From a bacterium (lineage in GTDB: Bacteria > Patescibacteriota > Microgenomatia > UBA1400 > UBA12108): a DNA stretch of 64,000 nt. The stretch is from assembly GCA_043827085.1 (NCBI GenBank), contig JBDRPO010000004.1:2847-66846 (forward strand). Direction: 5' to 3'. Positions 2,971-29,304 of this stretch are shown here, piece after piece. Numbering within the stretch: position 1 is the stretch's first letter; every line of letters begins with the position of its first letter. The translations under genes and the position numbers were made by a program. The notes below the pieces were generated by a model, which was not told the origin of the DNA, did not search any database, and saw only the letters and a program-made list of their open reading frames with translations.

Positions 2971-3106
2971 TGGTCAGACTGCAACTCCCAAGTTAGTAAT
3001 CAACCTGTCGTCAGAAGGTCTGTCCTGCTCAGGAAACCCCGAGCTTGTCGAGGGGTGTTTAGTCGACTTCAATATACAAACAGGAGACTAGGACAGACCT
3101 TAAAGG
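2971..3106. repeat. MITE-like palindromic repeat, family A, full-length copy (~135 bp) between rpmH and rnpA
   Basis: Near-identical copy at 34613-34752 and an internally deleted copy at 17097-17160. Arms GGTCTGTCCTG and CAGGACAGACC form an inverted repeat. Confidence 0.8.
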
Positions 3107-3118
3107 TATAATACGAAT

Positions 3119-3439
3119 ATGATCTCCCGCTCTCACAAATTCCCTCTCCGCACCCAGTTTCTCTCTTTTCGTGCCGCGTCCTCTCAAACCGCCACTCCCC
3201 ATCTTCGCCTCCTCACATCACCCCATACTCCCAGTAGACTCTCTGTAATTGTTCCCCTTAAAGTTAACAAGCGCGCCGTGGTTCGTAATCACCTCAAGCG
3301 CCTAGTTTACGATGTGGTCTGGAAAATTCTTCTCGATAAAAATATCGACTGCGTGATCATGTCCAAACCTCTCGCTCTCACCAAAGGCGACCCCACCGAC
3401 AAATTAATCCTTTCGGAATTATCGAGCCTTCATGTATAA
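3119..3439 (+). CDS. rnpA: Ribonuclease P protein component
   Basis: RnpA RNR-type motif (KRAVVRNHLKRL), ~106 aa, positioned between rpmH and yidD. Confidence 0.85.
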   Translation: MISRSHKFPLRTQFLSFRAASSQTATPHLRLLTSPHTPSRLSVIVPLKVNKRAVVRNHLKRLVYDVVWKILLDKNIDCVIMSKPLALTKGDPTDKLILSELSSLHV

Positions 3440-3650
3440 AATCTACCGTCGCCTCTCCACTTTTCTAAAGTCGTTCACCCGCAATCTCGGTCTCTCAACG
3501 GGCCATTGTCGGTACGTTCCCACCTGTTCTCTTTATGCTAAACAAGCTTTTACCAAACATGGTTTGTGGAGGGGCGCTTGGTTATCTACCCAAAGACTGT
3601 TAAAATGTCACCCATGGTCTAAAGGTGGTTACGATGCACATCAGGAGTAA
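3432..3650 (+). CDS. yidD: Membrane protein insertion efficiency factor YidD
   Basis: 72-aa protein with the conserved CRYxPTCS..A and HPWSKGGYD motifs. It overlaps the rnpA stop. Confidence 0.85.
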   Translation: MYKIYRRLSTFLKSFTRNLGLSTGHCRYVPTCSLYAKQAFTKHGLWRGAWLSTQRLLKCHPWSKGGYDAHQE

Positions 3651-3700
3651 TAACTCCTGAGAAATGCCTCCAGATACGAAGTAATCTGAGAGGCCCCCGA
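3650..3700. repeat. Short hairpin repeat, family D (CTGAGAAATGYCTCCAGAYACGAAGTARTCTGRGAGGCC)
   Basis: Second copy at 6715-6765, which sits in frame inside the flippase-like gene. Confidence 0.7.
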
Positions 3701-4452: not shown

Positions 4453-4905
4453 ATGTTAGCCACCGATATTAAAAAGATTGAAGAGCTTCTTCAGCTTTTT
4501 GACATTACGCCCGACCAAATCAAGATTGACGAAACTGATGAAGCAGTCACCATCACCGTTGATCAAAGCGAACTCGAAGCCGGCCGCCTAATTGGTCGCT
4601 TTGCCTCTACCCTCGACTCTCTTCAGTTGATTATCTCGCTTATGCTCAATAAAGGCGATGTTCACCGCCACATTCTTTTAGATGTTGCCGGCTACCGCGC
4701 TCGTCGCTTGACCACCCTCGAGACTATGGTTGAAAACGCCAAACAACAAGTGAGAAATATTGGTGGTGCCTGCGCCCTCCCGCCCCTTTCCGCAACCGAA
4801 CGCCGCCAAGTTCATTTTATGCTTCAAGATGATGCAGAATTCACTAGTTACTCCGAAGGCTACGGGCAAGATAGGCGCCTATTTATCGCTCCCAAAACTA
4901 TCTAG
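4453..4905 (+). CDS. jag: Jag/KhpB-like RNA-binding protein (KH + R3H domains)
   Basis: Jag N-terminal domain, KH and a C-terminal R3H-like region, following yidC. The start is set to MLATD at 4453, because the ORF-track start at 4414 overlaps yidC. Confidence 0.75.
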   Translation: MLATDIKKIEELLQLFDITPDQIKIDETDEAVTITVDQSELEAGRLIGRFASTLDSLQLIISLMLNKGDVHRHILLDVAGYRARRLTTLETMVENAKQQVRNIGGACALPPLSATERRQVHFMLQDDAEFTSYSEGYGQDRRLFIAPKTI

Positions 4906-6148
4906 TCTCCTAGTCGGTCTGATTATTTTTTTCTCTGCTACCCAATTTGGTTTGCATTTCTGGCCGCTCTCAACTCTTGTTTATGGCATCCGTATTGACT
5001 ATCTCTCCCCCGCCACCTACTTCCTCGACATCCTAATCATTTTTTATTTATCTCTCTCTTCACGCCTACCATCCACACTCTCTCGCTTGCATTCTATTTT
5101 CCCCATTCTCCTTGTCAATCTCATCTTTTCTCAAAACCCCGCCAGCACCCTCTCCTGGTCTCTCCACCTTGTTCTATATTTGTTGTTTATCTCATCTCTA
5201 CCCCTCAGCAGAATACGCAATACTCTATACAAAATATTGCCCATAGCAATCCTCTTCCAAGTCACGCTCGCGCTCACCCAAGTCACCATTGGTCATTCTG
5301 TTGGTGGGCTCATGTACTACCTTGGTGAACGAACCGTGGCTGTGGGTGCGCCTACGATCGCCCTTGCCATGTTTATGGATCATGTTGTACTACGTGCCTA
5401 TGGTACTTTCGGACACCCCAACGTGCTTGCTGGATGGTTAGTAATCGCTTTATTGATTACCATCCAACTTTGGAGACAACGCCAATCGTCAGTGGGGCTG
5501 ACCTTAAAGGACTCGAGCGCGATTAGTGTCCGAAAAGATCCTAGAAGGTCAGACCCAATGGGTACTAAAACCATTTGGGTACCCCTCATCCTCACCACCC
5601 TCGGCATTTTTCTCACTCAGTCTCGCGCCGCCGCCCTCACCCTCTTTGTTTTCATCATTCCTTTCTATCTACTTAAATCCCTCAAATCTCGAGTGATTTA
5701 TTTTGTACTTATTCTAGCTTCTAGCTTCTATCTTCTATCTTCTGGCACACTATTACGTGCGTTCGATCTCTCCTCTTCCGAGCGCCTTACTTTGCAGGGA
5801 GTCTCCCTTAAAGCAATTCAAGCATTTCCGCTTTTCGGCACCGGGGCGCAGGCTAGCATTTCTACCTACCCTACCGTCTCTCCCAATACTCGCCTCCTCC
5901 AACCCGACCACAATTCTCTTACCCTCTTCCTCTCCTGGTTCGGTATTTTTGGTCTCCTAGCCATTTTATACTCTCTGAGATTTCAATTTAAGAATTTGAG
6001 AATTTATGATTTTCGATTTGTCCTCCCACTCCTCCCACTTCTTCTCCTCGACCACTATCTCTTCACTTCCCCCCAAGGTTTATTTGTATTACTTCTATAC
6101 CCTGCCGTTGCGGTAAACTACTCTCATGCTCAAAAAAATCGCGAGTAA
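4760..6148 (+). CDS. O-antigen ligase (Wzy_C)-like polytopic membrane protein; true start uncertain, probably ~4830-4950
   Basis: 10-12 TM helices and an FLTQSRAAALTLFVF segment typical of O-antigen ligase domains. The N-terminal part of the track ORF overlaps jag and is probably not translated. A 75-bp palindromic repeat is inserted in frame at 5500-5578. Confidence 0.45.
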   Translation: MVVPAPSRPFPQPNAAKFILCFKMMQNSLVTPKATGKIGAYLSLPKLSSLLVGLIIFFSATQFGLHFWPLSTLVYGIRIDYLSPATYFLDILIIFYLSLSSRLPSTLSRLHSIFPILLVNLIFSQNPASTLSWSLHLVLYLLFISSLPLSRIRNTLYKILPIAILFQVTLALTQVTIGHSVGGLMYYLGERTVAVGAPTIALAMFMDHVVLRAYGTFGHPNVLAGWLVIALLITIQLWRQRQSSVGLTLKDSSAISVRKDPRRSDPMGTKTIWVPLILTTLGIFLTQSRAAALTLFVFIIPFYLLKSLKSRVIYFVLILASSFYLLSSGTLLRAFDLSSSERLTLQGVSLKAIQAFPLFGTGAQASISTYPTVSPNTRLLQPDHNSLTLFLSWFGIFGLLAILYSLRFQFKNLRIYDFRFVLPLLPLLLLDHYLFTSPQGLFVLLLYPAVAVNYSHAQKNRE

Positions 6149-7343
6149 TACCCTGGCACAACTTGTCGCCAAATTTTTTGGTGCTGGACTCACCCTCTTC
6201 ACCACCTACTATACGATCCGTCTTACCGGTCTCGAACTTTATGGTGATTTAACTAAAATTCTCGTCCTCGTCGCCATAGGTTTTACCGCCATCGATTTTG
6301 GTTTGAACGCCGAAGCAATTCGCTTTGGTACGAGTGAAAGCAAAATGCGTCAAGTTCTAGGTCAAGTTATCCTCGTTCGCCTAGTTCTTTCCGCACTCGT
6401 CATCCTTGCCCTCAATCTCCTTATTTTCTTTTTACCCGGCGGCTATTCGAGTGAAGTTAAATCCATTTTCTGGCTTGGTAGCCTGGCAATCATTTTTCAA
6501 GGCATCTATACCTCAGGCAATGCTTGGTTTCAATCCAATTTGTCATACTGGCGTCCTACCATCTCGGTCGTTGTCGGGTCACTGACCGGCACGGGTCTCA
6601 CCCTCTATTTTCTTGCGACCTCCCCCACCCTCTCTCATCTGGTTCTTGCCAACACTATTGGATACTCCGTCATGGCCCTCTGCTCTGTTTTCATGCTCTG
6701 CACATCAGGCGCGTTAGCGCCTGAGAAATGTCTCCAGACACGAAGTAGTCTGGGAGGCCTTCTCCGTCGCTCCCTAATTCTCGGGCTGATCTTAATTGCG
6801 AGCGTCTTTGCCTCAAAACTGGATACTATCATCCTCGGCATCTTCCGCCTCTCTAGCGAGGTTGGAGAATATGGTTTTGCCTACCGCATTTTTGACGTCA
6901 TTCTCGTCCTCCCAGTATTTGTCATGAATGCCGTCTATCCTCTCTTAATCAAAGATAGTGGAAACTCTTCAAAACTAATCAGTCATACCACAAAAAACAT
7001 GGCCTTCATTGGCGTCGCTACCGCCATTTTTCTCTGGTTTGCCGCCCCCTACGTCAATCTTGTCAAACCCGGCCTCACACTCACAGTAAGCGTCCTTCGT
7101 CTCCTCTCCCTCTCCCTTCCCCTCTTCTATGTGACCGCACCCCTTATGTGGTCTTTGATTGGGGCTCGTCGCGACAAAATAGTACTCAGCGTGTATGTTG
7201 TTGCTGCCCTGGGCAACGGTCTTTTAAACCTACTTTTTATACCCTCTTTTGGCGCCCCCGCCGCCGCCGCGATGACTGGTATTACCGAGTTATTTATTTT
7301 TTGCGCTCTGTTATACTTCTCTCGCAATGATTTGAGAACTTAA
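6126..7343 (+). CDS. Polysaccharide biosynthesis protein / Wzx-like flippase (MOP superfamily)
   Basis: 12-14 TM helices. The N-terminal ASNTLAQLVAKFFGAG..YG motif is typical of Wzx/MurJ-like flippases. A family D hairpin repeat is in frame at 6715-6765. Confidence 0.55.
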   Translation: MLKKIASNTLAQLVAKFFGAGLTLFTTYYTIRLTGLELYGDLTKILVLVAIGFTAIDFGLNAEAIRFGTSESKMRQVLGQVILVRLVLSALVILALNLLIFFLPGGYSSEVKSIFWLGSLAIIFQGIYTSGNAWFQSNLSYWRPTISVVVGSLTGTGLTLYFLATSPTLSHLVLANTIGYSVMALCSVFMLCTSGALAPEKCLQTRSSLGGLLRRSLILGLILIASVFASKLDTIILGIFRLSSEVGEYGFAYRIFDVILVLPVFVMNAVYPLLIKDSGNSSKLISHTTKNMAFIGVATAIFLWFAAPYVNLVKPGLTLTVSVLRLLSLSLPLFYVTAPLMWSLIGARRDKIVLSVYVVAALGNGLLNLLFIPSFGAPAAAAMTGITELFIFCALLYFSRNDLRT

Positions 7344-7348: not shown

Positions 7349-7795
7349 ATGATTACAAAACTATTATTGAATACAGACGGTGGTTCGCGCGGCAATCCCG
7401 GCCCTGCCGCCTACGGCTACGTTATCCGCGACATCTCTGGCCTGCCCGCCGAAGCCTCGGCGAAGGAGGGTACGGGAATCATTCTGGAAAAATGCGGTAA
7501 TTATATAGGCACTGCCACCAACAACACTGCGGAATACGAAGGCCTAATTGCGGGGATCAAATGGGTGCTCACCCACCACCCGCGCGCCATGCTCACAATT
7601 AAAATGGACTCACTCCTTATTGTCAATCAAATCAAGGGCCTATTTAAAGTGAAAAATCCCGGTCTCATTCCAAAATATCAAGAAGTGAGGGGACTATTAT
7701 CTCAACTCCCCAAGTGGTCTATCGAACACACCTACCGTGAAGGCAACTCCCTAGCAGATGAACTAGTCAATCTAACGCTTGATGCACGTACTTAA
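7349..7795 (+). CDS. rnhA: Ribonuclease HI-like (type 1 RNase H fold)
   Basis: DGGSRGNPGPAAYGYV...TNNTAEYEGL...D..L...REGNSLAD pattern (DEDD carboxylates). A family C repeat (GCCGAAGCCTCGGCGAAGGAGG) sits in frame at 7446-7470. Confidence 0.7.
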   Translation: MITKLLLNTDGGSRGNPGPAAYGYVIRDISGLPAEASAKEGTGIILEKCGNYIGTATNNTAEYEGLIAGIKWVLTHHPRAMLTIKMDSLLIVNQIKGLFKVKNPGLIPKYQEVRGLLSQLPKWSIEHTYREGNSLADELVNLTLDART

Positions 7796-8054: not shown

Positions 8055-10862
8055 ATGTCTGCTCGTACTTTTGCCGTCGAAACTCAAGCTCAAGCCGTGG
8101 CCATTTTCGGTGGTCCTACTGAACTCACCACCAAACTTACTCAGGAGCTAGAGGTAAACGGTCTTCATGCCGAAAGGGTAGCATCTTCAACCCAGCTCGA
8201 AAAACTACAAGCTACTCACGACCCCGATTATCTTGTGATCTTCTCTGACTTTAAAGACGGCGATCTCCTCCCAACTCTCCAAACTCTGGTTGAATCAGGC
8301 CAATCTCACCTTATTCTCATCTCTCCCCTTAACTCGCCCGCCTCGAATCTTCCCCTCCCTCCCGCCACCCTAAATCTTATTTATTCTGATTATGTAGGGG
8401 ATGACGAGTTATTCTCTCCCACTCTCGAGTCTTGGCTCACTAATATCCAAAGCAGCCGCGCCCTCGAACTTGCCGGTGATGGACTTTCCGAACTAAGCCT
8501 CTTGGGGATTAACGATCTAGCTAGCCTTCTCAGTCTCGCCATTTTCCATAGCGGGGGAGGGTCCGGCGTCACTCTCTACTTGGGTAATCCCACTCCAATT
8601 TCATTTCTTAATCTCGCTTACCTTATCCGCACCAACTTGCCCTTTAAAATAAACTTATCGTTTACGGCAGGGGAGGAGTCCACTCAGCTTGAACTGGACA
8701 ATTTTGCCGCCGCTCTCGAGAAACTAAACTATCATCTCCTCGATTCATTTGAAGACTTGCTTAAAATCTACCTCAAGACGCACGTGAAAGTCGAAGAAAA
8801 ACCCACCCCTCGTAGCGAAGCGGAGACCCCTCCATTAAACCCGAATGCCAATACGGCTGAACAAGCAGTCAGTGGCAAATCGAGCATTAATGGCGGGGCC
8901 AAAAAACTTACCCCTCTTAAAACCTCAATCCCCGCTTTTATTCCTCTCCAGTCCAAAAAGCGCCCCTTTAGCTTCTCAAATCTTATCCCCAAATTTCATC
9001 TAAAACGTCACCATATTCTCCAGCCCTCTCCCACCCATCCACACCTTCGTACCATCGTGGGTAGGGGACTCATTATTGGTCTTGCCCTCTACCTTGGGAC
9101 TGTCGCCTTCTCCGGCACCATCGTCGGCTTATCCGTCAATAGCAACATAAAAACCATTCGCCAAGAAGAGCTCCCTAAAAGTAATCGGCTAAGTAGCTTT
9201 TCGCTCACCTACCTCCAAGCCAACTGGATCGCGCTCACTTCCGTCCCCGGTCTCTCCACCAAACAATCCATGATCGACTTAACCCTACTTCTGGACGCCT
9301 ATCACCAGGCTCTCTCCGCCCTAGACACGGCGAGTCTCTTAAATAAATCAACTCAAAATCTCCTTGGTTACATTTTTGGCTCCGGCAACGCCGACGTTGC
9401 TCAAGTTATCAGTCTCTCTCGTCTTCAAGCCGAGGAGTTGTATCAAAAACTCTCACTCCTCGATGGTTCACTTCCAAAGGATCCGCCCCTCATCGTCCCA
9501 ACTAAATATCACTTATCCTACGAGCGAGCTAAAGCTAAATTGGGGGTAGTCAAAAGGGGAGTCACCACCACCAAGGCCGTCCTCGCAGTCACCCCCGACT
9601 TTATCGGCCTTGGCGGCAGACGAAAATACGCCGTTCTCTTCCAAAATAATCTTGAGCTCCGCGCAACCGGCGGGTTTATTGGCTCTTTTGCCATTCTCAG
9701 TTTTGAAAACGGCAAGCTTTATGACATGCCGATCTACGATGTATACGACTCTGACGGTCAGCTCAAGGGCCACGTTGAGCCCCCATCTCCCATCAAAACT
9801 ATCCTCGGCGAAGGGAATTGGTATCTCCGCGACTCAAACTTCGATCCAGATTTCCCCACAAGTGCCAGGCGGGCCGAGTGGTTTATCAACAAATCACTCA
9901 ATTTTAACCTTGATGGTACGATCGCCATGACGATTCCCTCGCTCTCCGCGCTTCTGGAAGCTACCGGTCCCCTCGAAATTCCCGATTATAACGAGACCAT
10001 AACCGGGGGGAATCTCTCCGAACGGGTCCAACTTCACGCCGAAGTCAATTTTTTCCCCGGCAGCACCAAAAAGAAAGAATTTTTAAGTACCGTCGCAAGT
10101 GCTCTCTTTGCCAAGCTTCCTAGCCAGGGAGGACTAGTTAGCCTCAAGTTGGGGACAGCCCTCGCCGACTCAGTCGCGAGAAAAGATACTCTTATCTCGC
10201 TCACAAATACTACTACCAACCACGTTTTTCAGACTCTTGGCTGGAACGGCAGTTTGGTTGATTTTCCCTGTCCCACCACACTTAACTGCCACAAAGACTA
10301 CGCCATGGTCGTCGATAGTAATTTTGGTGTCAACAAAGCCAATTACTTTATCAAAAGAAATATCGAAGAGGTTATAACCCTTGATCAAAATCTGGCCGTG
10401 AATCACGTCCTACGTTTACGTTACCAGAACACTGCCACCTCCGACGCTTGGCCTGCCGGCACCTACAAGAATTATCAGCGACTCTATCTCCCGATCGGCA
10501 CCACCATCGGGAAAATCAGAGTAGGGGACAAGGAGCTCGCGACCAAAGACTATACTGTCTACTCCGAGCACAATCGCGCTGTTCTCAGCTATCTCGTTTC
10601 TGTCCCCATCAAAGAAACAGTCATCGTTCAAATAGAATACACAACTCCCCAACTCCCTCAGGAAAATGAACTTCTCTACACCTGGTACTGGCAAAAACAA
10701 CCCGGTACTTCCAGTGATGACAGTCTCACGGTTTATCTCAACCACCCCGCGTACTTGAGCCCCACGACCATCTCTCCCGCGGCCGACCTTGGTCCCCAAC
10801 AACTCAAGTTTGACATGCAAAACGACACCGATCGTCGCATCACCGTCAAATTCACCAAGTAA
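8055..10862 (+). CDS. Large membrane-anchored protein; C-terminal extracytoplasmic part resembles the DUF4012 family
   Basis: 935 aa. An ~300-aa N-terminal cytoplasmic region precedes one TM helix near residue 335 (LIIGLALYLGTVAFSGTIVGL). A GGFIGSFAIL.. block follows, as recalled for DUF4012 cell-envelope proteins of Actinobacteria and Saccharibacteria. Confidence 0.4.
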   Translation: MSARTFAVETQAQAVAIFGGPTELTTKLTQELEVNGLHAERVASSTQLEKLQATHDPDYLVIFSDFKDGDLLPTLQTLVESGQSHLILISPLNSPASNLPLPPATLNLIYSDYVGDDELFSPTLESWLTNIQSSRALELAGDGLSELSLLGINDLASLLSLAIFHSGGGSGVTLYLGNPTPISFLNLAYLIRTNLPFKINLSFTAGEESTQLELDNFAAALEKLNYHLLDSFEDLLKIYLKTHVKVEEKPTPRSEAETPPLNPNANTAEQAVSGKSSINGGAKKLTPLKTSIPAFIPLQSKKRPFSFSNLIPKFHLKRHHILQPSPTHPHLRTIVGRGLIIGLALYLGTVAFSGTIVGLSVNSNIKTIRQEELPKSNRLSSFSLTYLQANWIALTSVPGLSTKQSMIDLTLLLDAYHQALSALDTASLLNKSTQNLLGYIFGSGNADVAQVISLSRLQAEELYQKLSLLDGSLPKDPPLIVPTKYHLSYERAKAKLGVVKRGVTTTKAVLAVTPDFIGLGGRRKYAVLFQNNLELRATGGFIGSFAILSFENGKLYDMPIYDVYDSDGQLKGHVEPPSPIKTILGEGNWYLRDSNFDPDFPTSARRAEWFINKSLNFNLDGTIAMTIPSLSALLEATGPLEIPDYNETITGGNLSERVQLHAEVNFFPGSTKKKEFLSTVASALFAKLPSQGGLVSLKLGTALADSVARKDTLISLTNTTTNHVFQTLGWNGSLVDFPCPTTLNCHKDYAMVVDSNFGVNKANYFIKRNIEEVITLDQNLAVNHVLRLRYQNTATSDAWPAGTYKNYQRLYLPIGTTIGKIRVGDKELATKDYTVYSEHNRAVLSYLVSVPIKETVIVQIEYTTPQLPQENELLYTWYWQKQPGTSSDDSLTVYLNHPAYLSPTTISPAADLGPQQLKFDMQNDTDRRITVKFTK

Positions 10863-10908: not shown

Positions 10909-11640
10909 ATGACTATTTTTGAACTCGCCGCTTCTACTCGCACGCTCTTTGGCCGGAAAACCAAACAGCTCAGGAAAAAGGGAATCGTCCCAGCGAACAT
11001 CTTTGGCAAAAAAATCAAATCCCTCGGCATAGAGATCGAAAAAGGGATTCTTCTAGACACCATGCGTAAAGCCGGCGAGACAGGCTTGATCCATCTCAAG
11101 ATCAAGGGTGACGATAAAACCCACCCCGTCCTCGTTTCTGGCTACGCTCAAGATCCAGTAACCGGCGACATGCTCCACGTCGATTTCCACGAAGTTGATC
11201 TTAAACAAAAAACCAAAGCCATGGTTCCTGTCAAAACCGTGGGCGTTTCTCCCGCAGTCGACACAGGCAACATCTTGGTTATGTTCAAAAATGAAATTGA
11301 AGTTGAAGCCCTTCCCACCGACCTCCCCGATGTCATTGAAGTTGATATTTCGGGGCTTGCCGAAGTTGGAGCCCATATTTTAGCGAAAGATCTCAAAGTT
11401 GACCGCTCCAAAGTTACGCTCGATATCGAGGGAGATGCACAAATAGTTGCCATCCAAGAGCCAACCAAAGAAGAAGTTGTTGTCCCCGCTGCTCCAGCCG
11501 AGGGCGAGGAAGCCGCTCCAACCGAGGGTGAGGAAAGCAAACCAGCCGAGGGCGAAACTAAACCGGAGGCTAAAGAAACCAAGAAAGAAGACTTGTCCGC
11601 CGAAGCCAAGGCTAAGGCGGGACCTAAGGCTGAAAAATAG
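10909..11640 (+). CDS. rplY: 50S ribosomal protein L25 / general stress protein Ctc
   Basis: N-terminal L25 beta-barrel (LFGRKTKQLRKKGIVPANIFG) plus a low-complexity E/K/A-rich C-terminal tail. GGAGG ribosome-binding site 8 bp upstream. Confidence 0.85.
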   Translation: MTIFELAASTRTLFGRKTKQLRKKGIVPANIFGKKIKSLGIEIEKGILLDTMRKAGETGLIHLKIKGDDKTHPVLVSGYAQDPVTGDMLHVDFHEVDLKQKTKAMVPVKTVGVSPAVDTGNILVMFKNEIEVEALPTDLPDVIEVDISGLAEVGAHILAKDLKVDRSKVTLDIEGDAQIVAIQEPTKEEVVVPAAPAEGEEAAPTEGEESKPAEGETKPEAKETKKEDLSAEAKAKAGPKAEK

Positions 11641-14244: not shown

Positions 14245-14772
14245 ATGTTACAAACTACTGACGAACAACTAGACACTATCAATGAAAAGAACGTTGTCAT
14301 TAGCTCAACCAGCAAGTCTATAGCCCACCGTGCCGGTCTCCTGCACAGGATCGTCATCGGTGAAATCGTAAACTCCAAAAGAGAATACTGTTTCGTCAAA
14401 CAAGCGGGTGATCGCCAAGATCCTGGTCAGTACATCTCTCCGATTGGTGGGCATGTCCAGGCAGGGGAGCGGATCGAAGACGCACTCTGTCGCAAGTGCC
14501 ATGAAGAAGTTGGCTTTACCCCGGTCGAACTAAAATATGTTGGTGGAACGATCTACAATCGCGAAGTTATCGGCCGTCGCGAAAACCACTTCTTTCTCGT
14601 TTACATGATTCGTCACAATGGCCCAGTCATCCTCAACCATGAATCAGTCGATTACCAGTGGTTCTCAGTGGAGAAGATTCAACAAACTCTGCAAAGTAGT
14701 CCTCAAACCTTCGATGCCGCCTGGCACCACGTGTTTAAAAACATCTTCCTTAAAATCTACCAAACTACTTAA
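14245..14772 (+). CDS. NUDIX hydrolase
   Basis: Nudix box GGHVQAGERIEDALCRKCHEEVGF (GX5EX7REUXEEXGU). Confidence 0.7.
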   Translation: MLQTTDEQLDTINEKNVVISSTSKSIAHRAGLLHRIVIGEIVNSKREYCFVKQAGDRQDPGQYISPIGGHVQAGERIEDALCRKCHEEVGFTPVELKYVGGTIYNREVIGRRENHFFLVYMIRHNGPVILNHESVDYQWFSVEKIQQTLQSSPQTFDAAWHHVFKNIFLKIYQTT

Positions 14773-17077
14773 TTTCCGGTTTACCCGCCGAAGCCCCGCG
14801 CCCTTCCGAAGCCTTTGGCGAAGGAGGGTTGGCGTAGGTGGGCCACTTCGACAAAATGAGCATGCCATCCTTCATTCTTGGCATTTCCTTCCAAATCGCC
14901 TCCGTCACAAACGGCATAAACGGATGCAGCAACTTCAATCCATTTAGTAACACGTGTCGCAAGACGGACAGTGCGACATCTTGATCTTTCCTCACCTTCA
15001 CTTTCTCGATATACACGTCGGCTACGCTATGCCACATAAACTCGTAGATTGTGTCCGCCGCTTCCGCAAAACGATATTTCTCGAGTAGGGTAGTTATTTT
15101 TGTAATTTTCTCGTTTAACTCTTTGATCATCACCTCATCTTCCGCCGCTAACCCCTTTATCTTGGGTCCATACCACGGGATTTTCCCCTCACACTTTTCC
15201 GTCATCATCAGATAAAACCGACTCATATTCCAAATCTTATTGGCAAAGTTCCGCATCGCCCGCACCTTGTCTTCTGATAAAGGCACTTTTCCTCCCTCCC
15301 CGTTCCCAAACAGGAGTGACATCCGGAAAGCATCAGCCCCGTATTTATCCACGAGTTCGATCGGGTTGATCACATTACCCTTGCTCTTACTCATCTTCTG
15401 TCCCCGGGCGTCAGTCACCGTCGACCACAAGTACACATTTTTAAAAGGCACCTCTTTCTTTGCGTAAAGTCCAAACATCATCATCCGTGACACCCACATC
15501 CGGAGAATGTCCGACATTGTTGCCATCACGTCAGTGGGGTAATGGCTCGCATACTCATTCTCTTTTAGGGTGACTAGGGGCCACTGTCCAGAAGAAAACC
15601 AAGTATCAAACGTATCCGTTTCCTGTAAATATTCGCCAGCAGGCCTAGTCTCATTTACCACATATTTTGCCTCTTTTGGTGCCGACAATGTTTGGAGTCC
15701 ACTCTCAATGTCTTCAAAACGATATGTCCTTAAAAGTTCTCCAATCTTCCCGCTCACCGGTTTTTTCTCTTTATCCAAAAACGTCACGTGTATTTTTTGA
15801 TTAATACTAGAGTCTGGAGTCTTACTACTGGCGTCTATTAAGTACCACGCCGGAATCCGGATTCCCCACGCCACTTGTCTGCTGATTGGCCAGTCATGCA
15901 TGACCGCCATCCAGTCGAGGATTTGTTTCTCAAACTTCTTGGGATAAAACTGTGTCTTTTTCTTTTTGATCGCCTCGACTACCGGCGGCTTCAAAGATTC
16001 CACCTTGATGTACCAGTTGGGCACCGTCATGGGTTCCATATCGCGACCACACTTGTAACAAACAGTAACAGCATGAAGATAATGCTCATCAATTTTTTTG
16101 ATTATTCCAATCTTCTGGAGTTCCTCAACTGTCTTTTCTCTCGCCACTTTTACTTTAAGTCCGTTTAGTTCTTTAACCTTTGCATCACTCGGAATTGTCA
16201 TCCTCCCCATCTGGTCGATCACCGAAATAGTCGCGAGCTTGTGGCGTTTCCCCGCCTCAAAATCATTGGGGTTATGAGCAGGGGTAATCTTTACGACTCC
16301 CGTCCCAAACTTCATGTCTACCATCGAATCCGCAATAACTGGGATTTTTCTGGTCGTTAAGGGGAGCTCCACTTCCATCCCCACAAACTTCGCGTATCGC
16401 TTGTCTTTTGGATGTACCGCGAGAGCCGTATCCCCAAACATCGTCTCTGGCCTGACTGTCGCCACGGTAAGCAGTCCGTATTTTATGTAGTAAAGCTTAT
16501 CTTCTCTCTCGTCATGTAATATCTCTAATTCAGCCAGGGACGTCCCACAATATGTGCAGTAGTTTACAAGGTAATCACTGCGGTATACTAAATCTTCCTT
16601 AACCATTCTCTGGAAAGTCTCAAACACAGTCGAGAGTACCCGGGAGTCTAGTGTGAACACACTTCGCTCCCAATCAGCGGAGAAGCCGAGTCGACGGAAC
16701 TGCTCAAAAATAAGTCCTGAATTATCTTCTACAAACTTGGCGATATTATCGTACAAAGTTTGTCGGTCGAAGTCCAGCCGGCTTTTACCCTCTTTTGATA
16801 GTTGTTTCTCGTACACAAACTGGGTCTCTAACCCCGCGTGGTCTCGCCCCGGTATCCACTCTGTCACGTAGCCTTGCATCCTTTTCCACCGGATCAAAAC
16901 ATCATCGATCGTGTACATCCCATGTCCCGCGTGCAAGCTAGCATTTGCATTCGGTGGCGGCATTAAAATCGTGAACGGTTTACCATGAGCGGAGTCGAAG
17001 GGTCTAAACGCACCGCTTACTTCCCACTCCTTATAAATCTCGCTCTCTACCTTGCTGTGTTCAAACCTCGATTCCAT
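14765..17077 (-). CDS. valS: Valine--tRNA ligase
   Basis: Class I aminoacyl-tRNA synthetase: HIGH-type PPPNANASLHAGHG (ValRS-type PPPN.TG.LH.GH), KMSKS (GQKMSKSKGNV) and an editing CP1 region. The C-terminal 20 aa are encoded by a family C palindromic repeat. Confidence 0.9.
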   Translation of the reverse strand: MESRFEHSKVESEIYKEWEVSGAFRPFDSAHGKPFTILMPPPNANASLHAGHGMYTIDDVLIRWKRMQGYVTEWIPGRDHAGLETQFVYEKQLSKEGKSRLDFDRQTLYDNIAKFVEDNSGLIFEQFRRLGFSADWERSVFTLDSRVLSTVFETFQRMVKEDLVYRSDYLVNYCTYCGTSLAELEILHDEREDKLYYIKYGLLTVATVRPETMFGDTALAVHPKDKRYAKFVGMEVELPLTTRKIPVIADSMVDMKFGTGVVKITPAHNPNDFEAGKRHKLATISVIDQMGRMTIPSDAKVKELNGLKVKVAREKTVEELQKIGIIKKIDEHYLHAVTVCYKCGRDMEPMTVPNWYIKVESLKPPVVEAIKKKKTQFYPKKFEKQILDWMAVMHDWPISRQVAWGIRIPAWYLIDASSKTPDSSINQKIHVTFLDKEKKPVSGKIGELLRTYRFEDIESGLQTLSAPKEAKYVVNETRPAGEYLQETDTFDTWFSSGQWPLVTLKENEYASHYPTDVMATMSDILRMWVSRMMMFGLYAKKEVPFKNVYLWSTVTDARGQKMSKSKGNVINPIELVDKYGADAFRMSLLFGNGEGGKVPLSEDKVRAMRNFANKIWNMSRFYLMMTEKCEGKIPWYGPKIKGLAAEDEVMIKELNEKITKITTLLEKYRFAEAADTIYEFMWHSVADVYIEKVKVRKDQDVALSVLRHVLLNGLKLLHPFMPFVTEAIWKEMPRMKDGMLILSKWPTYANPPSPKASEGRGASAGKPEIK

Positions 17078-17096: not shown

Positions 17097-17160
17097 TTGT
17101 TCGGACCGCAGTTCCCAGGCTAGTAAACAACAAGCCGTCAGAAGGTCAGACCTTATTGGA
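17097..17160. repeat. MITE-like repeat family A, internally deleted copy, abutting the VanW-like stop codon
   Basis: Matches the left arm and right end of the 2971-3106 and 34613-34752 copies (CCGTCAGAAGGTCAGACCTTATTGGAATT). Confidence 0.7.
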
Positions 17161-17161
17161 A

Positions 17162-18934
17162 TTATTGTGCTCCCGTTCCTCGCAAAAACACGCTTGCCCA
17201 AGGTCTGTACGTCGTCGAGAACGTTTTGTCCTGAATAGTTTCCCCATCTCGCACTACCTTGTACTCAAAACTAGCCTTCGCTCCCGCTGCCGCCCAGTCT
17301 ATTTGTTTCGTCGTCCCTGCAGGAAGTGAAGGATCATCTTGGTAAATTGTTGGGAGGGGAGGGGTAATTCCCCAAACTTTATGGTTCTCAATCGTTGCCA
17401 CTCGCCCGTCGCTCGTTCCATAAATCTCGATCACTAAATGTAATGCCTTGGGATCATTAATTGTCTGAATCAGAATATGCCCCGGCGTATCGTTTTTAAA
17501 CCGGAAATCTTTAGATGGTGCAATCACCGTCGCGTCGACCCCTGGCTTACTATCGAGTTCATAATAAGACACTCGGTACGCGTGTCCCCAGCGCTCGATT
17601 ATCGGCAGTCCTGCGCTTATTACAGCTCGAAACATAGTGGTCGATACTTGGCAAAGTCCCCCGCCATCCCCCAGGACCGTCCGGCCAGCCGAAATAATAT
17701 ATGCTGGTCGATACCCCGTTGCCGAGGACACCTCTCCCACCATTTTATTAAAACTAACTTCCTCTCCAGGCGCAAACAAAGTGCTATTGATGCGCGACGA
17801 GGCAAGTGCCACATTATAAATCCGATTCGGGATGGAATGTTGGTAATACGACTCGCCCCGCCCGATCCGCTCACGTATCCCTAGTTCATTCACTTTTTCT
17901 GTCGTCACCTTGGGTGGTGTCCTAGTGGCTGCAACCTCTATTGTCTCACTTTTACTCTTTCCCTCAAGTAAATTCTTAATTCCAGTTTGAATCCTCACTG
18001 CCGTCTCCTGATCACCAACAGTTATCCCGTCCCTCCCCGGTGCAAACTCTTTTACCTTTCCCCCAATAAACTCAAATTTTGCGTCCTGAGACTCCTTATT
18101 TAAGCTATCACCAAGTCCCACCACATAACCATTTACTATCGCCATATCCACCTCTTCTATCCCTCCTTCAGTCGAGAGAAAAGGTATTAGTTCTTTCCCA
18201 CCGAGAGAAATTTTTTCATCATCAAGCGTCATCACCATGCTTACTTGTGCCAAAGTCTCCGCTCTTGCCGTCAGCTCGGAGAGCTTCTCACTGGTGAGCC
18301 TCCTCTCTGCAATTTTTGTTGGGACAGCGATATCTTCGCTTCCTAGTTTGCTATAAACACTCCGTATTTCCTGGTCAAACATCTCGCTGTCCAAGACTAC
18401 TCCGTCGCTCCCATTGGTTACCCTTACCTTCTGCCCCACTATCTCAATCGTTGGTTCAACCGGCACGATCTCAATCGCCAAGCTTATTTCATTGATAAGC
18501 CCTTCCATTTTTTCTGTCTTCCCCTCCGCAATTTTGAGTGGGTAGCTTGTTTTCTTATTAATGAGTAAAAGTAAATAGTCTTCAATCTGTACTCGTCGTC
18601 CATAGTGGTAAGCCTCATTTAGTGTGTCATCGACTTCAAAATTAACCGATTCTTTTGGTGTTTCCCAACTGCTCCCATTAAAAACCAACTTCGCTTGATA
18701 ATTTTGAGTAGCCTCCAATATCCTTACTCGTGCCTGCTCTCTGGTCAGTCCAGCAACAGAGACCCCCGCCACCTCGATTCTCGGGTAAAACTTAGTGTGG
18801 TAGGTAAGTCTGGCAACCGCCACAAGTGTCATTATCCCAACAAGCATCCCCAATAAAAAATACCCAACAATCTTCCCGTGCCCCCAACGAAGCCCAAAAA
18901 GCGAAGTAGGGTTAGCTTGTTTCGTTTTCTTCAT
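17162..18934 (-). CDS. VanW-family protein (peptidoglycan-associated, N-terminal TM anchor)
   Basis: C-terminal VanW domain (PGEEVSFNKMVGEVSSATGYRPAYIISAGRTVLGDGGGLCQVSTTMFRAV) and one N-terminal TM helix. Confidence 0.8.
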   Translation of the reverse strand: MKKTKQANPTSLFGLRWGHGKIVGYFLLGMLVGIMTLVAVARLTYHTKFYPRIEVAGVSVAGLTREQARVRILEATQNYQAKLVFNGSSWETPKESVNFEVDDTLNEAYHYGRRVQIEDYLLLLINKKTSYPLKIAEGKTEKMEGLINEISLAIEIVPVEPTIEIVGQKVRVTNGSDGVVLDSEMFDQEIRSVYSKLGSEDIAVPTKIAERRLTSEKLSELTARAETLAQVSMVMTLDDEKISLGGKELIPFLSTEGGIEEVDMAIVNGYVVGLGDSLNKESQDAKFEFIGGKVKEFAPGRDGITVGDQETAVRIQTGIKNLLEGKSKSETIEVAATRTPPKVTTEKVNELGIRERIGRGESYYQHSIPNRIYNVALASSRINSTLFAPGEEVSFNKMVGEVSSATGYRPAYIISAGRTVLGDGGGLCQVSTTMFRAVISAGLPIIERWGHAYRVSYYELDSKPGVDATVIAPSKDFRFKNDTPGHILIQTINDPKALHLVIEIYGTSDGRVATIENHKVWGITPPLPTIYQDDPSLPAGTTKQIDWAAAGAKASFEYKVVRDGETIQDKTFSTTYRPWASVFLRGTGAQ

Positions 18935-18952: not shown

Positions 18953-20461
18953 ATGCCAAAATTTCCTGATCCTACCAAAGACTACGGTGGCACACCCATG
19001 ACTGGCTCTATCGACTTATCTGCCGAAGCATCGGCGAAGGAGGCGGACATCCCCCCCACCCCGCTCTATCAAGCTCCAGAACCGACCGCCGCTCCCACTC
19101 CCGAACCGGCCCCCACACCTGGCAACCAAAGCGCCGGAACACCAGAAAATCAAACTCCCAAATCGTCGATTTCCAGTTCTCCGTTCCGCAATATGATGCC
19201 GATCTTAATCGGAGGTGGTGCCCTCATCCTTTTACTAGTCCTAGGGTTTACCATCGTTCCCAAATTCTTTAAAAAAGCCGAACCCATCACTCTCAACTAT
19301 TGGGGCCTTTGGGAATCAAGCTCCGTTATGCAAACCGTCATTGCCGACTACGAGAGTCAGAATCCAACCGTCAAAATCAACTACACCATGCAGAATATCA
19401 AAAACTATCGCTCGCGCTTTCTCACCGCCGGCACCCAGGGGAGTTCACCCGATATTGTTCGCATTCACAATACCTGGCTTCCCATGCTCAAAAAAAATCT
19501 CGCCCCCGCTCCCGATACAGTACTCACAACCAGTGATCTAAGTAGCTACTACCCCATCGTCCAAAAAAACTTCGTCAGTGGCGGCAAAATCTACGCCCTC
19601 CCGCTTGAAATTGACGGGCTAGCTCTCCTTTATAACGAAGATATCTTTAATGAAGCGGGTGCGACTCCTCCCTCCGACTGGAACACGCTGAGGAAACTTG
19701 CCTTTGACTTGACCAAAATCAACGCCGAAACCAAAATTATCGAACGCGCAGGGGTAGCGCTCGGTACCACCAACAATGTCGAACACTGGTCCGACATCTT
19801 GGGTCTCCTGATCCTCCAAAACTCCGGCAATCCAGGGAAACCCACCGACACTGCCGTTCAAGACGCTCTCACTTTCTACACCATCGTTTCCACCCAAGAC
19901 AAATCATGGGACTCTAGCCAACCCAACTCTGTCTATGCCTTTGCGACCGGTACCGTTGCCATGATCTTGGCTCCGTCCTGGCAAGTCTCCGAAATCAAAG
20001 CTATTAATCCTGATCTCCACTTTAAAGTCGCTCCCGCTCCCGTTTTGCCTTCTGCTAACTATGCCTGGGCTTCATATTGGGGTGAGGCAGTGCCACTCAC
20101 TAGTAAAAATCCTGAAGCTGCCTGGAAATTTATCAAATACCTAAGTACCCCCGAAGTCCTCCAAAAAATGTACGCCGGCGCCAGCCAAATCCGCGCTCTT
20201 GGCGAGCCTTACCCACTCACGAGTCTCAGCAGTACTTTAGCTAGCGACCCACTAGCAGGAGCATATGTTACTCAGGGTCCAAACTATGTGTCCTGGTATC
20301 TTGCCGACCGCACCTACGACGATGGGGTCAATACCGAATTTAGTAAGTACTACGAAGACGCCGTAAACGCCATCAATGATGGTTCGACTGTCGGGAGCAT
20401 CCTCAAAACTCTCGACGAAGGCATAGCCCAAGTTTCCGCCAAGTACCCCGAGGCAAAATGA
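18953..20461 (+). CDS. Extracellular solute-binding protein (ABC transporter substrate-binding protein, family 1-like), orphan
   Basis: N-terminal TM/signal anchor followed by an SBP fold (LNYWGLWESS...DIVRIHNTWLPMLKKNL). A family C repeat is in frame near the N-terminus (SAEASAKEA). No adjacent permease or ATPase gene. Confidence 0.65.
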   Translation: MPKFPDPTKDYGGTPMTGSIDLSAEASAKEADIPPTPLYQAPEPTAAPTPEPAPTPGNQSAGTPENQTPKSSISSSPFRNMMPILIGGGALILLLVLGFTIVPKFFKKAEPITLNYWGLWESSSVMQTVIADYESQNPTVKINYTMQNIKNYRSRFLTAGTQGSSPDIVRIHNTWLPMLKKNLAPAPDTVLTTSDLSSYYPIVQKNFVSGGKIYALPLEIDGLALLYNEDIFNEAGATPPSDWNTLRKLAFDLTKINAETKIIERAGVALGTTNNVEHWSDILGLLILQNSGNPGKPTDTAVQDALTFYTIVSTQDKSWDSSQPNSVYAFATGTVAMILAPSWQVSEIKAINPDLHFKVAPAPVLPSANYAWASYWGEAVPLTSKNPEAAWKFIKYLSTPEVLQKMYAGASQIRALGEPYPLTSLSSTLASDPLAGAYVTQGPNYVSWYLADRTYDDGVNTEFSKYYEDAVNAINDGSTVGSILKTLDEGIAQVSAKYPEAK

Positions 20462-21411
20462 AGTCCGTATCCAAGGGGACCGTCCTTAAAAGGAATTCCC
20501 GGCTGCAAGCCGAGAAGGGCTCGTCGGCGGACGGAAGGACAGTCCCCAATGTAACCCTTTCGATTCTCCAAACACTAAAGTATAGCGATCACTTTGACTT
20601 TCCCCTGACCGCTAGTGAAATCTACACTCGCCTTATTGAGATTAAAGCCTCGCGTTCCCAAATCGAGGCTACTCTTTCCGAGCTTTGCCGCTCAAAGAAA
20701 ATTGGCAAAACCAAAAACTCCTACCATCTCCCCCATCGTGAAACTCTTGTTTCCCGCCGTCTCAAATGCGCCAAACTATCCAAGCCTCTGCTTGCCCGTG
20801 CACGAAAACTATCATCTAAAATCTCACATCTAAAATCTATTCTTGCCATCTACTTGACGGGCTCTCTCGCCGTAGGCAACACTGACAGAGACTCCGATAT
20901 AGATTTGATGATTATTACCAAACCAGGTCGTCTATGGACCACCCGCCTCCTCCTCACTCTCTATACCACTCTACTTAATCTTCGCCGCACTCCACATTCC
21001 CTCAATAATTCAGGCAAGCTCTGTCTCAACCTCTACTTAACTCCAAATGCCTATCTGCTCCCTCCTGATCGAAGGTCACTCTATACAGCCTACGAACTCA
21101 TCCAAGCCGTCCCGCTCCACGATCCTATGGATACTCACTCCGCTCTCCTGTCCGCCAACTCTTGGATTCACAATTACCTGCCCAATGCGATCACAGGGTC
21201 TGACCTTGAAGGAAGTGCCCAACCCCGCCCTTACAGCGAGCGGGGAAGGTCAGACCCTATCGGAAACTTACTTGAATCTCTCGTCTATCATCTGCAATTT
21301 CTCTACATGCGCCCCCGCATCACTCGCGAATATGTGACCAAAGACTCTGCCTTCTTCCACCCCCACAATCCAGGCGAAATTGTAATAAATAAGCTTTCTA
21401 GGCTAATTTGA
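20458..21411 (+). CDS. Nucleotidyltransferase-domain protein (winged helix + Pol-beta-type NTase)
   Basis: GSLAVGNTDRDSDIDLMII is the G[SG]x9-13Dh[DE] NTase motif. The N-terminus carries an in-frame 84-bp family B repeat (20470-20553) and a second repeat at 21205-21250. Confidence 0.5.
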   Translation: MKSVSKGTVLKRNSRLQAEKGSSADGRTVPNVTLSILQTLKYSDHFDFPLTASEIYTRLIEIKASRSQIEATLSELCRSKKIGKTKNSYHLPHRETLVSRRLKCAKLSKPLLARARKLSSKISHLKSILAIYLTGSLAVGNTDRDSDIDLMIITKPGRLWTTRLLLTLYTTLLNLRRTPHSLNNSGKLCLNLYLTPNAYLLPPDRRSLYTAYELIQAVPLHDPMDTHSALLSANSWIHNYLPNAITGSDLEGSAQPRPYSERGRSDPIGNLLESLVYHLQFLYMRPRITREYVTKDSAFFHPHNPGEIVINKLSRLI

Positions 21412-21756: not shown

Positions 21757-22326
21757 ATGTTCTACACCATTTCTTCCATTGGTCCCGTCTGCCGTAAGCT
21801 GCATGCCGCAGGCTGTAAGCTGGTCCTCGCGACCGGCTTCTTTGACCTCCTCCACGCCGAGCACATTAAGTTTTTAGCGAAAGCCAAAGCCGCCGGCGAT
21901 ATCTTAATTGTCGCCGTCGAATCCGACGAACGAGCTCGGGTACTAAAAGGGGAGGGACGCCCCATCGAGCCCCAACCAGTTCGTTGTCAACATCTCCTTG
22001 ATCTCCGTAGCCCAGGGTCCGACCTGCTAAGGAGACGACCAATGGGAGTGTTTAGTCGAGCCCGCTCAGCGGGTGAGACCAGGTCGGACCCTCAAAGCAC
22101 ATTAGTTGATTATGTAATTTCTCTCCCCCCCGATTTCAACAACTTCGCCTCCTACGACTCCCTTATGTCTGCCGTTCGCCCACAAGTCTACGCCGTCTCG
22201 GCCCACACTTCTCACCAGAAAAGTAAAGATTTTCTCGTCGAAAAATATGGAGGTAAACTCCTTGTCGTCCATGACTTCAATCCTGCTATCTCCACCACCC
22301 AAATTATTCAAAACACTAGAATCTAA
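21757..22326 (+). CDS. Cytidylyltransferase-like nucleotidyltransferase (RfaE domain II / glycerol-3-phosphate cytidylyltransferase-like)
   Basis: N-terminal GFFDLLHAEHIKFL (HxGH nucleotidyltransferase motif). An ~85-bp palindromic insert (GGGTCCGACCTG...CAGGTCGGACCC) is in frame at 22013-22100. Confidence 0.55.
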   Translation: MFYTISSIGPVCRKLHAAGCKLVLATGFFDLLHAEHIKFLAKAKAAGDILIVAVESDERARVLKGEGRPIEPQPVRCQHLLDLRSPGSDLLRRRPMGVFSRARSAGETRSDPQSTLVDYVISLPPDFNNFASYDSLMSAVRPQVYAVSAHTSHQKSKDFLVEKYGGKLLVVHDFNPAISTTQIIQNTRI

Positions 22327-23156: not shown

Positions 23157-23237
23157 ATCAGGAGGGAGGGTCTGACCCTATGGGTACTAGAGACCATCGA
23201 GCTTGCAATCCATCATTCGTGTTAGAATATCTATGCT

Positions 23238-28755: not shown

Positions 28756-28764
28756 CTTACTAAA

Positions 28765-28845
28765 GGACTGTCCTTAAAAGGAATTCCCGACCGCAAGTCA
28801 AGAAGGGCTCGCCAGCAGGCGAAAGGACAGTCCTCATTGGATAAC
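28765..28845. repeat. Palindromic repeat family B (GGACTGTCCTTAAAAGGAATTCCCG...CGAAAGGACAGTCC) immediately after the groEL stop
   Basis: Near-identical copy at 20470-20553. Shorter derivatives at 35440-35478 and 44290-44330. Confidence 0.75.
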
Positions 28846-28919: not shown

Positions 28920-29297
28920 ATGTCTAAATCGCGCTTTCGTCGTGGCTCCCGCAAATCCATTTACCTCATCCTCGGTTTCTCCTTTATCCTCGCTCTCGGT
29001 TACGTCTATTTCCGCGCGCTCCTCTCACCTGCTCCCGCTCAAATCTTCCCCATCACCCCCACAGTGCTCGAATACGGCAATACCACCGTCGAAGGCACGC
29101 TCCGCAAAGATGCTCCCGCAGGCAGTCCCGGCAACTTCATTCTCGTCCTGTCAGACTCCCGCCCCATCCTCTTAGATGTCCAGGGTCTCGACCATCTCCT
29201 CAATCAAACAGTTACTGTTTCCGGCCTTCTCTCTCCCGCTGCAGAAACTAGTGCTCCTATGACTATGGTTGTCTCTCAACTTACCGTCGCTCAATAA
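28920..29297 (+). CDS. Hypothetical membrane-anchored small protein
   Basis: N-terminal TM helix (IYLILGFSFILALGYVYF), 125 aa, immediately upstream of the giant surface protein. Confidence 0.35.
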   Translation: MSKSRFRRGSRKSIYLILGFSFILALGYVYFRALLSPAPAQIFPITPTVLEYGNTTVEGTLRKDAPAGSPGNFILVLSDSRPILLDVQGLDHLLNQTVTVSGLLSPAAETSAPMTMVVSQLTVAQ

Positions 29298-29304
29298 ATT
29301 CATT

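Follow-up and report, generated by a model that had tools for sequence, protein, structure and literature searches.

The stretch of DNA considered here comprises positions 2,847 to 66,846 of contig JBDRPO010000004.1 (assembly GCA_043827085.1), 64,000 nucleotides (nt) that we call the window and number from its first letter. It belongs to a bacterium of the Microgenomates group within the Candidate Phyla Radiation (CPR); the best genomic relatives of its valS gene are metagenome-assembled genomes of that group, at 68-77% amino acid identity. The window begins with the gene order dnaN-dnaA-rpmH-rnpA-yidD-yidC-jag, and scattered within and between its genes are short palindromic repeats, which are the subject of this report. 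A preliminary description, made from the letters alone, had proposed that such repeats lie in frame inside protein-coding genes in the manner of the Rickettsia palindromic elements (RPEs). The analysis confirms the repeats and supports RPE-like behaviour of the intragenic palindromes, a likeness of behaviour only.

The plus strand is C-rich all along the window. The GC skew, about -0.2 and locally up to 0.4 in magnitude, keeps its sign at dnaA/dnaN and is independent of gene orientation, and a one-strand skew equally strong and uniform was found in four related loci (L004, L007, L009 and L010). Among these, L004 is the Microgenomates GW2011_GWF2_46_18 locus, syntenic with window positions 3501-24024. 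The skew of the window agrees with the whole-chromosome strand asymmetry known in the order UBA1400 (Collierbacteria, Beckwithbacteria, Chazhemtobacterium), for which mostly unidirectional replication has been proposed (PMC7143001).

Hairpin repeat families

A repeat search combined with self-BLAST resolved at least four families of hairpin repeats in the window, designated A to D, together with an F-like hairpin. The palindromic nine-nucleotide word GGTCNGACC occurs 10 times where 0.79 copies are expected and GGACNGTCC occurs 8 times against an expectation of 0.68, counts that none of 100 shuffles reached. There are 27 hairpins whose stem reaches 11 bp or more, compared with 9.1 +/- 3.0 in block shuffles.

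Family A has the arms RGGGTCNGACCTT ... AAGGTCNGACCCY and lies at 2971-3112, 5484-5581, 17098-17166, 21193-21263, 22012-22094, 23069-23189 and 34613-34751; many of its copies also have a 5' CGTCAG tag with a 45-nt extension (TGGTCAGACTGCAACTCCCAAG...) and a 3' ATNGG tail. The tag stands 5' of the left arm in five window copies and in seven copies from relatives, and the copy in the cytidylyltransferase gene has CGTAGC in its place. Family B (20472-20553, 28760-28841 and 35443-35480) has the arms GGGGACCGTCCTT ... AAGGACAGTCCCC, family C (3635-3695 and 6699-6759) is a pair of small hairpins, and family D (7443-7470, 11594-11621 and 19017-19044, with a D-like sequence at 14786-14836) has the consensus GCCGAAGCCTCGGCGAAGGAGGG. 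The typical unit of families A and B is a stem of 13-17 bp, RGGG(T/A)CNG(A/T)CCTT ... AAGG(T/A)CNG(A/T)CCCY, enclosing a variable interior of 7-75 nt within which smaller GC hairpins occur. For each element the predicted fold has a long stem at its base and a branched interior, with energies of -19 to -45 kcal/mol.

The pairing of the arms is conserved. Over 27 copies from eight loci, 98.6% of cells at 13 stem positions are paired, and compensatory changes affect 7 of the 13 pairs (45 cells, against 12.7 +/- 2.5 in shuffles); these copies had been selected for complementarity, which 28 of the 35 candidate arm pairs possess. In hybrid variants the left arm GGTCTGTCC pairs with the right arm GGACAGACC, so it is the complementarity between arms, and not the self-symmetry of each arm, that is conserved. 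Both hairpins of the family C copy at 6699-6759 likewise still pair, with compensatory changes relative to 3635-3695.

The same DNA recurs inside and outside genes. Intragenic 20477-20545 is 85.5% identical to intergenic 28765-28833 over 69 nt, intragenic 6720-6759 matches 3656-3695 at the 3' end of yidD at 90% over 40 nt, and the two intergenic segments 34613-34676 and 2971-3034 share 89% identity over 64 nt.

Copies within and between genes

At all ten intervals listed in the preliminary description a hairpin or repeat does lie within an uninterrupted open reading frame (ORF), with boundaries that differ by 10-20 nt from those first given, and the hosts are those first named: Wzy_C, Polysacc_synt, RNase H and class I tRNA synthetase proteins, a solute-binding protein (SBP), a nucleotidyltransferase, a cytidylyltransferase and YidC. 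To these we add a family D copy in the tail of ribosomal protein L25, a family C copy at the 3' end of yidD and six intergenic copies of families A and B. When the host proteins are aligned with their orthologues, the repeat-encoded residues prove to be insertions specific to a lineage, placed in loops or at the ends of proteins that are conserved elsewhere along their length. In distant lineages these residues show no conservation, and the start and stop codons of the genes leave the repeats within the coding sequence.

The focal element, reported at 5500-5578, is a family A hairpin with a real extent of about 5484-5581 (+), in frame in a Wzy/O-antigen-ligase-like gene (4760-6148), to which it adds 28 residues relative to L004. 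It consists of the CGTCAG tag, arms at 5493-5505 and 5545-5557, an ATGGG tail and a small trailing hairpin. The nucleotidyltransferase gene (20458-21411) holds two elements. A family B hairpin (20472-20553, +; first placed at 20470-20553) makes up the N-terminal 32 residues of the protein, where the ATG overlaps the stop codon of the SBP gene, a GAGG motif lies upstream and the first 70 codons offer no alternative in-frame ATG, GTG or TTG. The second element is a family A hairpin (21193-21263, +; arms at 21193-21207 and 21246-21260), in frame and adding nine residues, of which the interval 21205-21250 given previously is the interior. A further family A hairpin (22012-22094, +; earlier 22013-22100) adds 33 residues to the product of the cytidylyltransferase gene (21757-22326), and in rnhA a family D copy (7443-7470, +; earlier 7446-7470) inserts the peptide PAEASAKEG in the beta1-beta2 hairpin, making the protein 12 residues longer than that of L004. 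Aligned with two solved RNase H chains, 3hst and 3u3g, the rnhA insert falls opposite a gap of 9-12 residues that follows the first block of conserved residues (GNPGPAGYG...). Another family D copy (11594-11621, +) lies at the C-terminus of ribosomal protein L25/TL5, in the tail, which is 11 to 13 residues longer in the window than in relatives.

In valS and YidC2 the element lies at the 3' end of the gene and extends the C-terminus of the protein; neither is an internal insertion. The valS gene (- strand, 14765-17077) reads, in reverse sense, the D-like hairpin at 14786-14836 (+ orientation), which gives it 21 extra residues, placed right before the last three codons and missing from five orthologues. 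In YidC2 the C-terminal tail has been replaced by a family A copy with its 5' extension (23069-23189, +; earlier 23093-23156, as forming the C-terminus), and both the new tail and the stop codon, which lies in the loop of the element (23154-23156), are provided by the repeat.

The flippase gene (6126-7343) does contain an in-frame family C copy (6699-6759, +; previously 6715-6765) in a variable loop, but the net gain is only five residues. In the SBP, a family D copy (19017-19044, +; previously 19020-19048) encoding SAEASAKEA lies in the low-complexity N-terminal tail and accounts for six additional residues relative to L004 but none relative to L003, the weakest case of the set. Both sites are in loops that vary in all relatives, so that the net gain is small in each. 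The GT-C-like gene has a perfect 13-bp hairpin in frame (63902-63938, +; previously 63903-63938), with the peptide LTPGVKGAHTPGV in a loop 2-15 residues longer than in relatives; this hairpin is a single copy in the window.

Both inserts for which structures were modelled with AlphaFold2 fall in low-confidence loops. In the cytidylyltransferase (mean predicted local distance difference test score, pLDDT, 82.7) the insert, at about residues 83-116, is predicted as coil at pLDDT 52-54 between a helix (73-82) and a strand (119-122), in a core above 85. In the Wzy-like protein (mean pLDDT 78.1) the focal insert joins the transmembrane helices 197-228 and 247-263 as a loop at pLDDT 62-69.

The three family A hairpins inside genes measure 84, 71 and 83 nt, and in each no more than one or two of the forward frames lack a stop. 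Even so, host and orthologue lengths always differ by a multiple of three, the mark of a survivorship filter on translated sequence, which argues against excision. The arms of a family are read in differing frames (as G-S-D, G-L-T or G-Q-T), and family D is read in both senses, as AEASAKEG in rnhA and the SBP and as SPKASEGRGASA from the other strand in valS. Because one family is read in different frames and both senses, the inserts originate at the DNA level and not at the peptide level.

Outside genes, an element of family A complete with 5' extension, hairpin and tail (2971-3112, +) lies between rpmH and rnpA and has a syntenic counterpart at 8227-8368 of L009. A second full-length copy (34613-34751, +) stands between the convergent genes for pyrH and an M23 peptidase and is missing in L131 and L132. 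A 5' extension with one palindromic arm of family A (17098-17166, +) separates the VanW and valS genes, both on the minus strand. Family B supplies an intergenic hairpin downstream of groEL (28760-28841, +), missing in the syntenic L131, where 19 nt lie between groEL and the next called gene, and a minimal hairpin upstream of gap (35443-35480, +). At its 3' end, yidD takes its last codons and its stop from a family C copy (3635-3695, +).

In its ATNGG/TGGTAnAnT sequence the tail is similar to an extended -10 box; a promoter role was considered and set aside, as convergent and antisense copies do not fit it. Extended -10-like sequences are present at 3101-3121 (AAAGGTATAAT), 35474-35496 (TGGTACATT) and 32465-32486 (TTGGTATACT), 6-9 nt 5' of the ATG of rnpA, gap and a REP-associated tyrosine transposase (RAYT)-like gene (REP, repetitive extragenic palindromic), and they hint at transcripts that begin at the ends of elements and have no leader or a very short one. 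The sequence GCCGTCAGAA is similar to the Neisseria DNA uptake sequence, a function that was dropped in view of a density of only about 1 per 16 kb.

Two other coding regions may hold elements of further kinds. At 6040-6085 the Wzy-like protein has a second lineage-specific segment, KNLRIYDFRF, eight residues longer than in L004; the similar ENLRIYDLR is found in the other Wzy loop of the orthologues P0030 and P0069, in L007 the position is taken by a family C insert, and the segment is probably a further element family. A hairpin with a 12-bp stem (CCCCTCCATTAA...TTAATGGCGGGG) at 8827-8898 lies in a variable region of a DUF4012 protein that is about eight residues longer than in L009 and L004, and may be another in-frame element. 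A second hairpin in the DUF4012 gene, at 9568-9616, falls in a conserved region and was rejected as probably due to chance.

Strand polarity and turnover among relatives

The orientation of the elements was scored from motifs that break their dyad symmetry (the CGTCAG tag, the extension on the 5' side, the tail and the inner parts of families B, C and D) in the window and in L007, L009, L010, L037, L061 and L092, the last three recovered by a strand-blind search. Across these seven loci, 53 motifs lie on the C-rich strand and none on the other. Since copies among opposite-strand genes keep this polarity (17098-17166 and the valS copy in the window, 757-854 in L092), its reference would be the chromosome strand and not transcription. 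For two of the three family A copies within genes, the opposite strand has no stop-free frame, from which the location of intragenic family A copies in plus-strand genes would follow. A D-like sequence adjoining the transposase gene of L131 has the opposite orientation, and the polarity rule may be weaker for family D.

The elements are unevenly distributed among relatives. Nucleotide alignment of L004 with the window is interrupted at the element positions, the core nine-nucleotide words are absent from 18 kb of L004, and every insert of the window is missing there. In L137, also syntenic, arms of families A and B are nearly absent. A metagenome scan with CGTCAGDRGGTCWGACC, a pattern too short for the collection, returned mostly chance matches in unrelated high-GC contigs, the genuine loci being only L037, L061 and L092; viral contigs scanned with two family-specific patterns gave no match.

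Where elements do occur, they return to the same protein sites. Among 120 Wzy orthologues, all from CPR and at most 60% identical, the loop that holds the focal insert is 45-47 residues long in about half; about 35 have palindromic inserts of differing families in this one loop, and about 70% have no insert there. One insert, QTATPK...RGSDPLRKSW, is the translated 5' extension of family A; another, RTLLKRNSRLQVEKGS, is family B and the same peptide as the N-terminus of the window nucleotidyltransferase; a third, GSDLKGSAQPR, matches the second insert of that nucleotidyltransferase. The orthologue P0005, from L007, shares the focal insert of the window at 93.8% nucleotide identity over 97 nt, with flanks at about 70%, and has three more inserts at other Wzy loops, one of them family C.

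The cytidylyltransferase site gives a similar picture: 63 of 120 orthologues have a segment exceeding the 17-residue baseline at the position of the window insert, and at least five palindromic insert types are found there. L137 (10001-10528) has at this very site its own palindrome with an 18-bp stem, CCTGTCACTTACAACCCCCGGGGTTGTAAGTGACAGG. Protein identity is 0.68-0.72 within an insert type and 0.66-0.70 between types, the nearest neighbour has the same insert type for only 13 of the 56 insert-bearing proteins, and pairs at 85-89% identity differ in insert state. Pairwise identities and nearest neighbours were used here, a neighbour-joining tree of the 156-residue core being star-like and uninformative. 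The rnhA beta-hairpin and the flippase loop have also been struck repeatedly in relatives. Insert type is thus independent of host-protein similarity, and the sites are hot spots of quick turnover, at which gain, loss and replacement are fast compared with the divergence of the proteins. The hot spots may result from target preference, for example with new elements entering old ones, from recombination between copies or from selection alone.

Origin of the elements

The window encodes an IS200-like, RAYT-like Y1 (HUH) transposase (32484-33161, +; Pfam Y1_Tnp, E=6.8e-10). Its translation contains the HUH and Tyr motifs, and it scores 56.5 bits against the NCBIfam model REP_Tyr_transpos, below the cutoff of 80. 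The protein has about 8,000 database matches, and among the matches listed are the Microgenomates group and other CPR lineages; a sequence search of the PDB found no solved relative. The gene occurs as a single copy in syntenic position in L131 and L132 as well, and so behaves as domesticated RAYTs do. It is missing from the syntenic position in L137. Directly upstream in the window lies a partly duplicated palindrome, F (CCACCCCGGGTGTG; 32411-32454, +), a second copy of which (53434-53448) has a minimal family A palindrome (53468-53480) after it. The arms of the GT-C hairpin agree with F in 11 of their 13 positions, and TPGV is the translation of each; the L137 cytidylyltransferase insert, TTPGV...TPGV, has only the core CCCCGGGG in common with F. 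The RAYT-like gene is an unproven candidate for a mobiliser acting in trans. Just 5' of it lies a 1027-residue ORF rich in Cys, Gly, Ser and Thr (29269-32352, +) without a Pfam match, whose syntenic counterparts in L131 and L137 are likewise unannotated.

Intragenic REPs and RPEs are the published precedents (PMC3733652, PMC10969869). Like the RPEs of Rickettsia (Ogata et al. 2000, 2002, per PMC10969869), the elements of the window are dispersed palindromes of several families in a small genome, with many in-frame insertions in unrelated housekeeping genes that add peptide where the fold permits. Unlike RPEs, each of which is described as encoding a conserved peptide, a single window family is read in several frames. 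The units, found in a different phylum, are modular, with conserved arms, a variable interior and lengths of 28-140 nt; they have absolute strand polarity, different families re-hit the same protein site across an order, and the local density is higher, with at least ten intragenic copies in 64 kb.

The CGTC-tagged REPs (Di Nocera et al. 2013, PMC3733652), reported as orphans without a transposase of their own, offer a second comparison: most family A copies have CGTC 5' of the hairpin, and copies are found at gene 3' ends and in genes without a dedicated flanking transposase. The structural definition of those REPs is an 8-9 bp stem starting with AT, a 4-5 nt loop and a CCA tail (PMC3733652), whereas the window elements fall outside it, with GC-rich stems of 13-17 bp, interiors of 7-75 nt and an ATNGG tail. 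Full-text literature, with incomplete coverage, gave no description of palindromic, REP, RAYT or MITE sequences (MITEs being miniature transposable elements with inverted repeats) of this kind in CPR, Patescibacteria or Microgenomates. The new points are the lineage in which the elements occur, their modular build with long stems, their absolute strand polarity and the hot spots that several families strike again and again.

With bacterial MITEs (Correia, ERIC, Nezha) the elements share short length, non-autonomy, inverted ends and occasional in-frame fusion to host ORFs. They differ in that no target-site duplication was detected in comparing the window with L004, and L135 with L136 and L004, where divergence is too high to define junctions, and in having no partner insertion sequence (IS): a split DDE transposase at 51935-52917 has unrelated 49-bp inverted repeats. 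The RAYT-associated REPs and their doublets (REPINs), together with the IS200/IS605 elements, resemble the present system in a conserved, single-copy, syntenic Y1/HUH homologue flanked by F in four genomes, and in hairpin elements with no target duplication seen. The system departs from REP-RAYT pairs in that families A-D do not flank the transposase gene and the protein scores below the NCBIfam RayT cutoff. In IS608-type elements orientation is tied to one DNA strand or to the direction of replication; the strand-specific orientation of the window elements (53 to 0 on the C-rich strand) is a likeness to IS200/IS605 that fits such a mechanism and is no proof of it.

We assign a probability of about 0.7 to the interpretation that non-coding, hairpin-forming dispersed repeats of the REP/RPE/MITE type populate one Microgenomates clade with one C-rich strand. 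Copies occupy gene 3' ends, intergenic DNA and gene interiors, all with the same polarity relative to the C-rich strand, and intragenic copies persist where the net change in length is divisible by three and at least one frame has no stop. Read-through would then add 5-33 residues, mostly polar ones, in loops between helices, in the turns of beta-hairpins and at termini. At a few hot spots, copies are rapidly gained, lost and replaced. As for the mechanism of mobilisation, we infer that spread and replacement may proceed via single-stranded, hairpin-folded DNA exposed on one template strand in replication, through an HUH/Y1 transposase such as the RAYT-like protein (32484-33161) or through hairpin-targeted recombination between copies. 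The fuller account, in which mobilisation of single-stranded DNA from one strand (perhaps by a domesticated RAYT-like HUH enzyme) and probably unidirectional replication would let interchangeable cassettes rewrite the loops of essential proteins, is a good deal more speculative, and we consider it rather doubtful.

Several points weigh against dispersed mobile repeats. The comparisons showed neither a transposition event nor a target-site duplication nor an exact empty site, and in the closest pair of filled and empty sites (L135 and L136, 83% amino acid identity) 2-3 codons are replaced without duplication. The RAYT-like gene is flanked by F (CCCACCCCGGGTGTG) and not by A-D in the window, L131, L132 and L133; a REPtron arrangement is thus found for F and not for A-D, since F alone flanks the gene. 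Translation of the elements is deduced solely from kept frames, and the census of elements covers 64 kb and fragments of other genomes. Finally, the elements are about 94% conserved between genomes and their host genes about 70%, which may mean a selected host function and not selfish spread.

That last point leads to the strongest competing explanation, partly compatible with dispersed repeats, in which the hairpins are motifs selected by the host, as protein-binding or structural DNA or as signals for RNA stability or termination linked to the strand of replication or transcription, and the coding-loop copies are a by-product. Beyond the conservation across genera, it would be favoured by the absolute strand polarity, as in architecture-imparting motifs, by the retention of the rpmH/rnpA copy in both the window and L009, and by the many copies at gene 3' ends and between convergent genes. 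Yet L004, L131 and L137 have no such elements at the same sites and across the sampled DNA, differing families replace one another at a single site, the hairpins lack the T-runs that intrinsic terminators would have after them, and the positions in rnhA, valS and the cytidylyltransferase have no obvious regulatory logic. On balance we think this explanation improbable, if still a serious one.

Far less probable is that the elements are removed before the finished protein, as introns, bulge-helix-bulge or bypassed sequences or inteins are, and add no residues. Each element does fold into a strong hairpin, the base of which draws the flanks together, and the rRNA genes of CPR bacteria carry insertions; yet every intragenic copy is open in frame with a net length in multiples of three, a constraint from which excised DNA is free, segments of 9-33 residues are far too short for inteins, and an Rfam scan of the window at gathering thresholds found tRNA-Cys only and no intron family. 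No more credible is the notion of ordinary, ancestral, fast-evolving low-complexity loops that are palindromic by chance: the flippase loop and the SBP and L25 tails do vary in length in all relatives, but the same DNA at 84-96% identity occurs in intergenic regions and unrelated genes, frames differ between hosts and most orthologues have no such segment. An artefact of assembly or binning, with chimeric joins at repeats, has nothing specific in its favour and can be practically dismissed, as the ORFs are continuous and the same architecture occurs in independent assemblies from ENA, JGI, NCBI and Logan.

Other features of the window stand apart from families A-D. The split DDE transposase ORFs (51935-52582 and 52582-52917, -) form an IS-like unit at 51880-52980 that ends in perfect 49-nt inverted repeats (51880-51928 and 52932-52980). 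This unit and a gene for a 1027-residue UvrD-helicase/PD-(D/E)XK nuclease (48788-51871) are bracketed by a 33-nt inverted repeat, 97% identical (48756-48788/53105-53137), and the bracketed segment could be composite or invertible. A free-standing LAGLIDADG homing-endonuclease ORF (36564-37325, -) adjoins the tRNA-Cys gene (37353-37426, -). The palindrome AACCTGCAAGGC / GCCTTGCAGG, at 54208-54238 and 55818-55847, occurs at gene ends in inverted copies 93% identical and may be a further family.

Colonisation of genes in frame by palindromic DNA has been seen as near-unique to Rickettsia, and a 2024 review speculates on other hosts (PMC10969869). In-frame palindromes are now found in a deeply separate lineage with minimal genomes, at a higher local density. 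Their fixed polarity on compositionally asymmetric strands would make these genomes a natural test bed for strand-specific single-strand transposition, and may bear on the unexplained skew of UBA1400-type genomes. The recurrent hot spots would provide many independent replicates on how proteins tolerate, and perhaps use, inserted peptides; the inserts will also confuse orthologue alignments, phylogenies and structure predictions in CPR bacteria. If it is true, strand-polar mobilisation would join genome-wide strand asymmetry, transposition of single-stranded DNA and innovation in protein loops.

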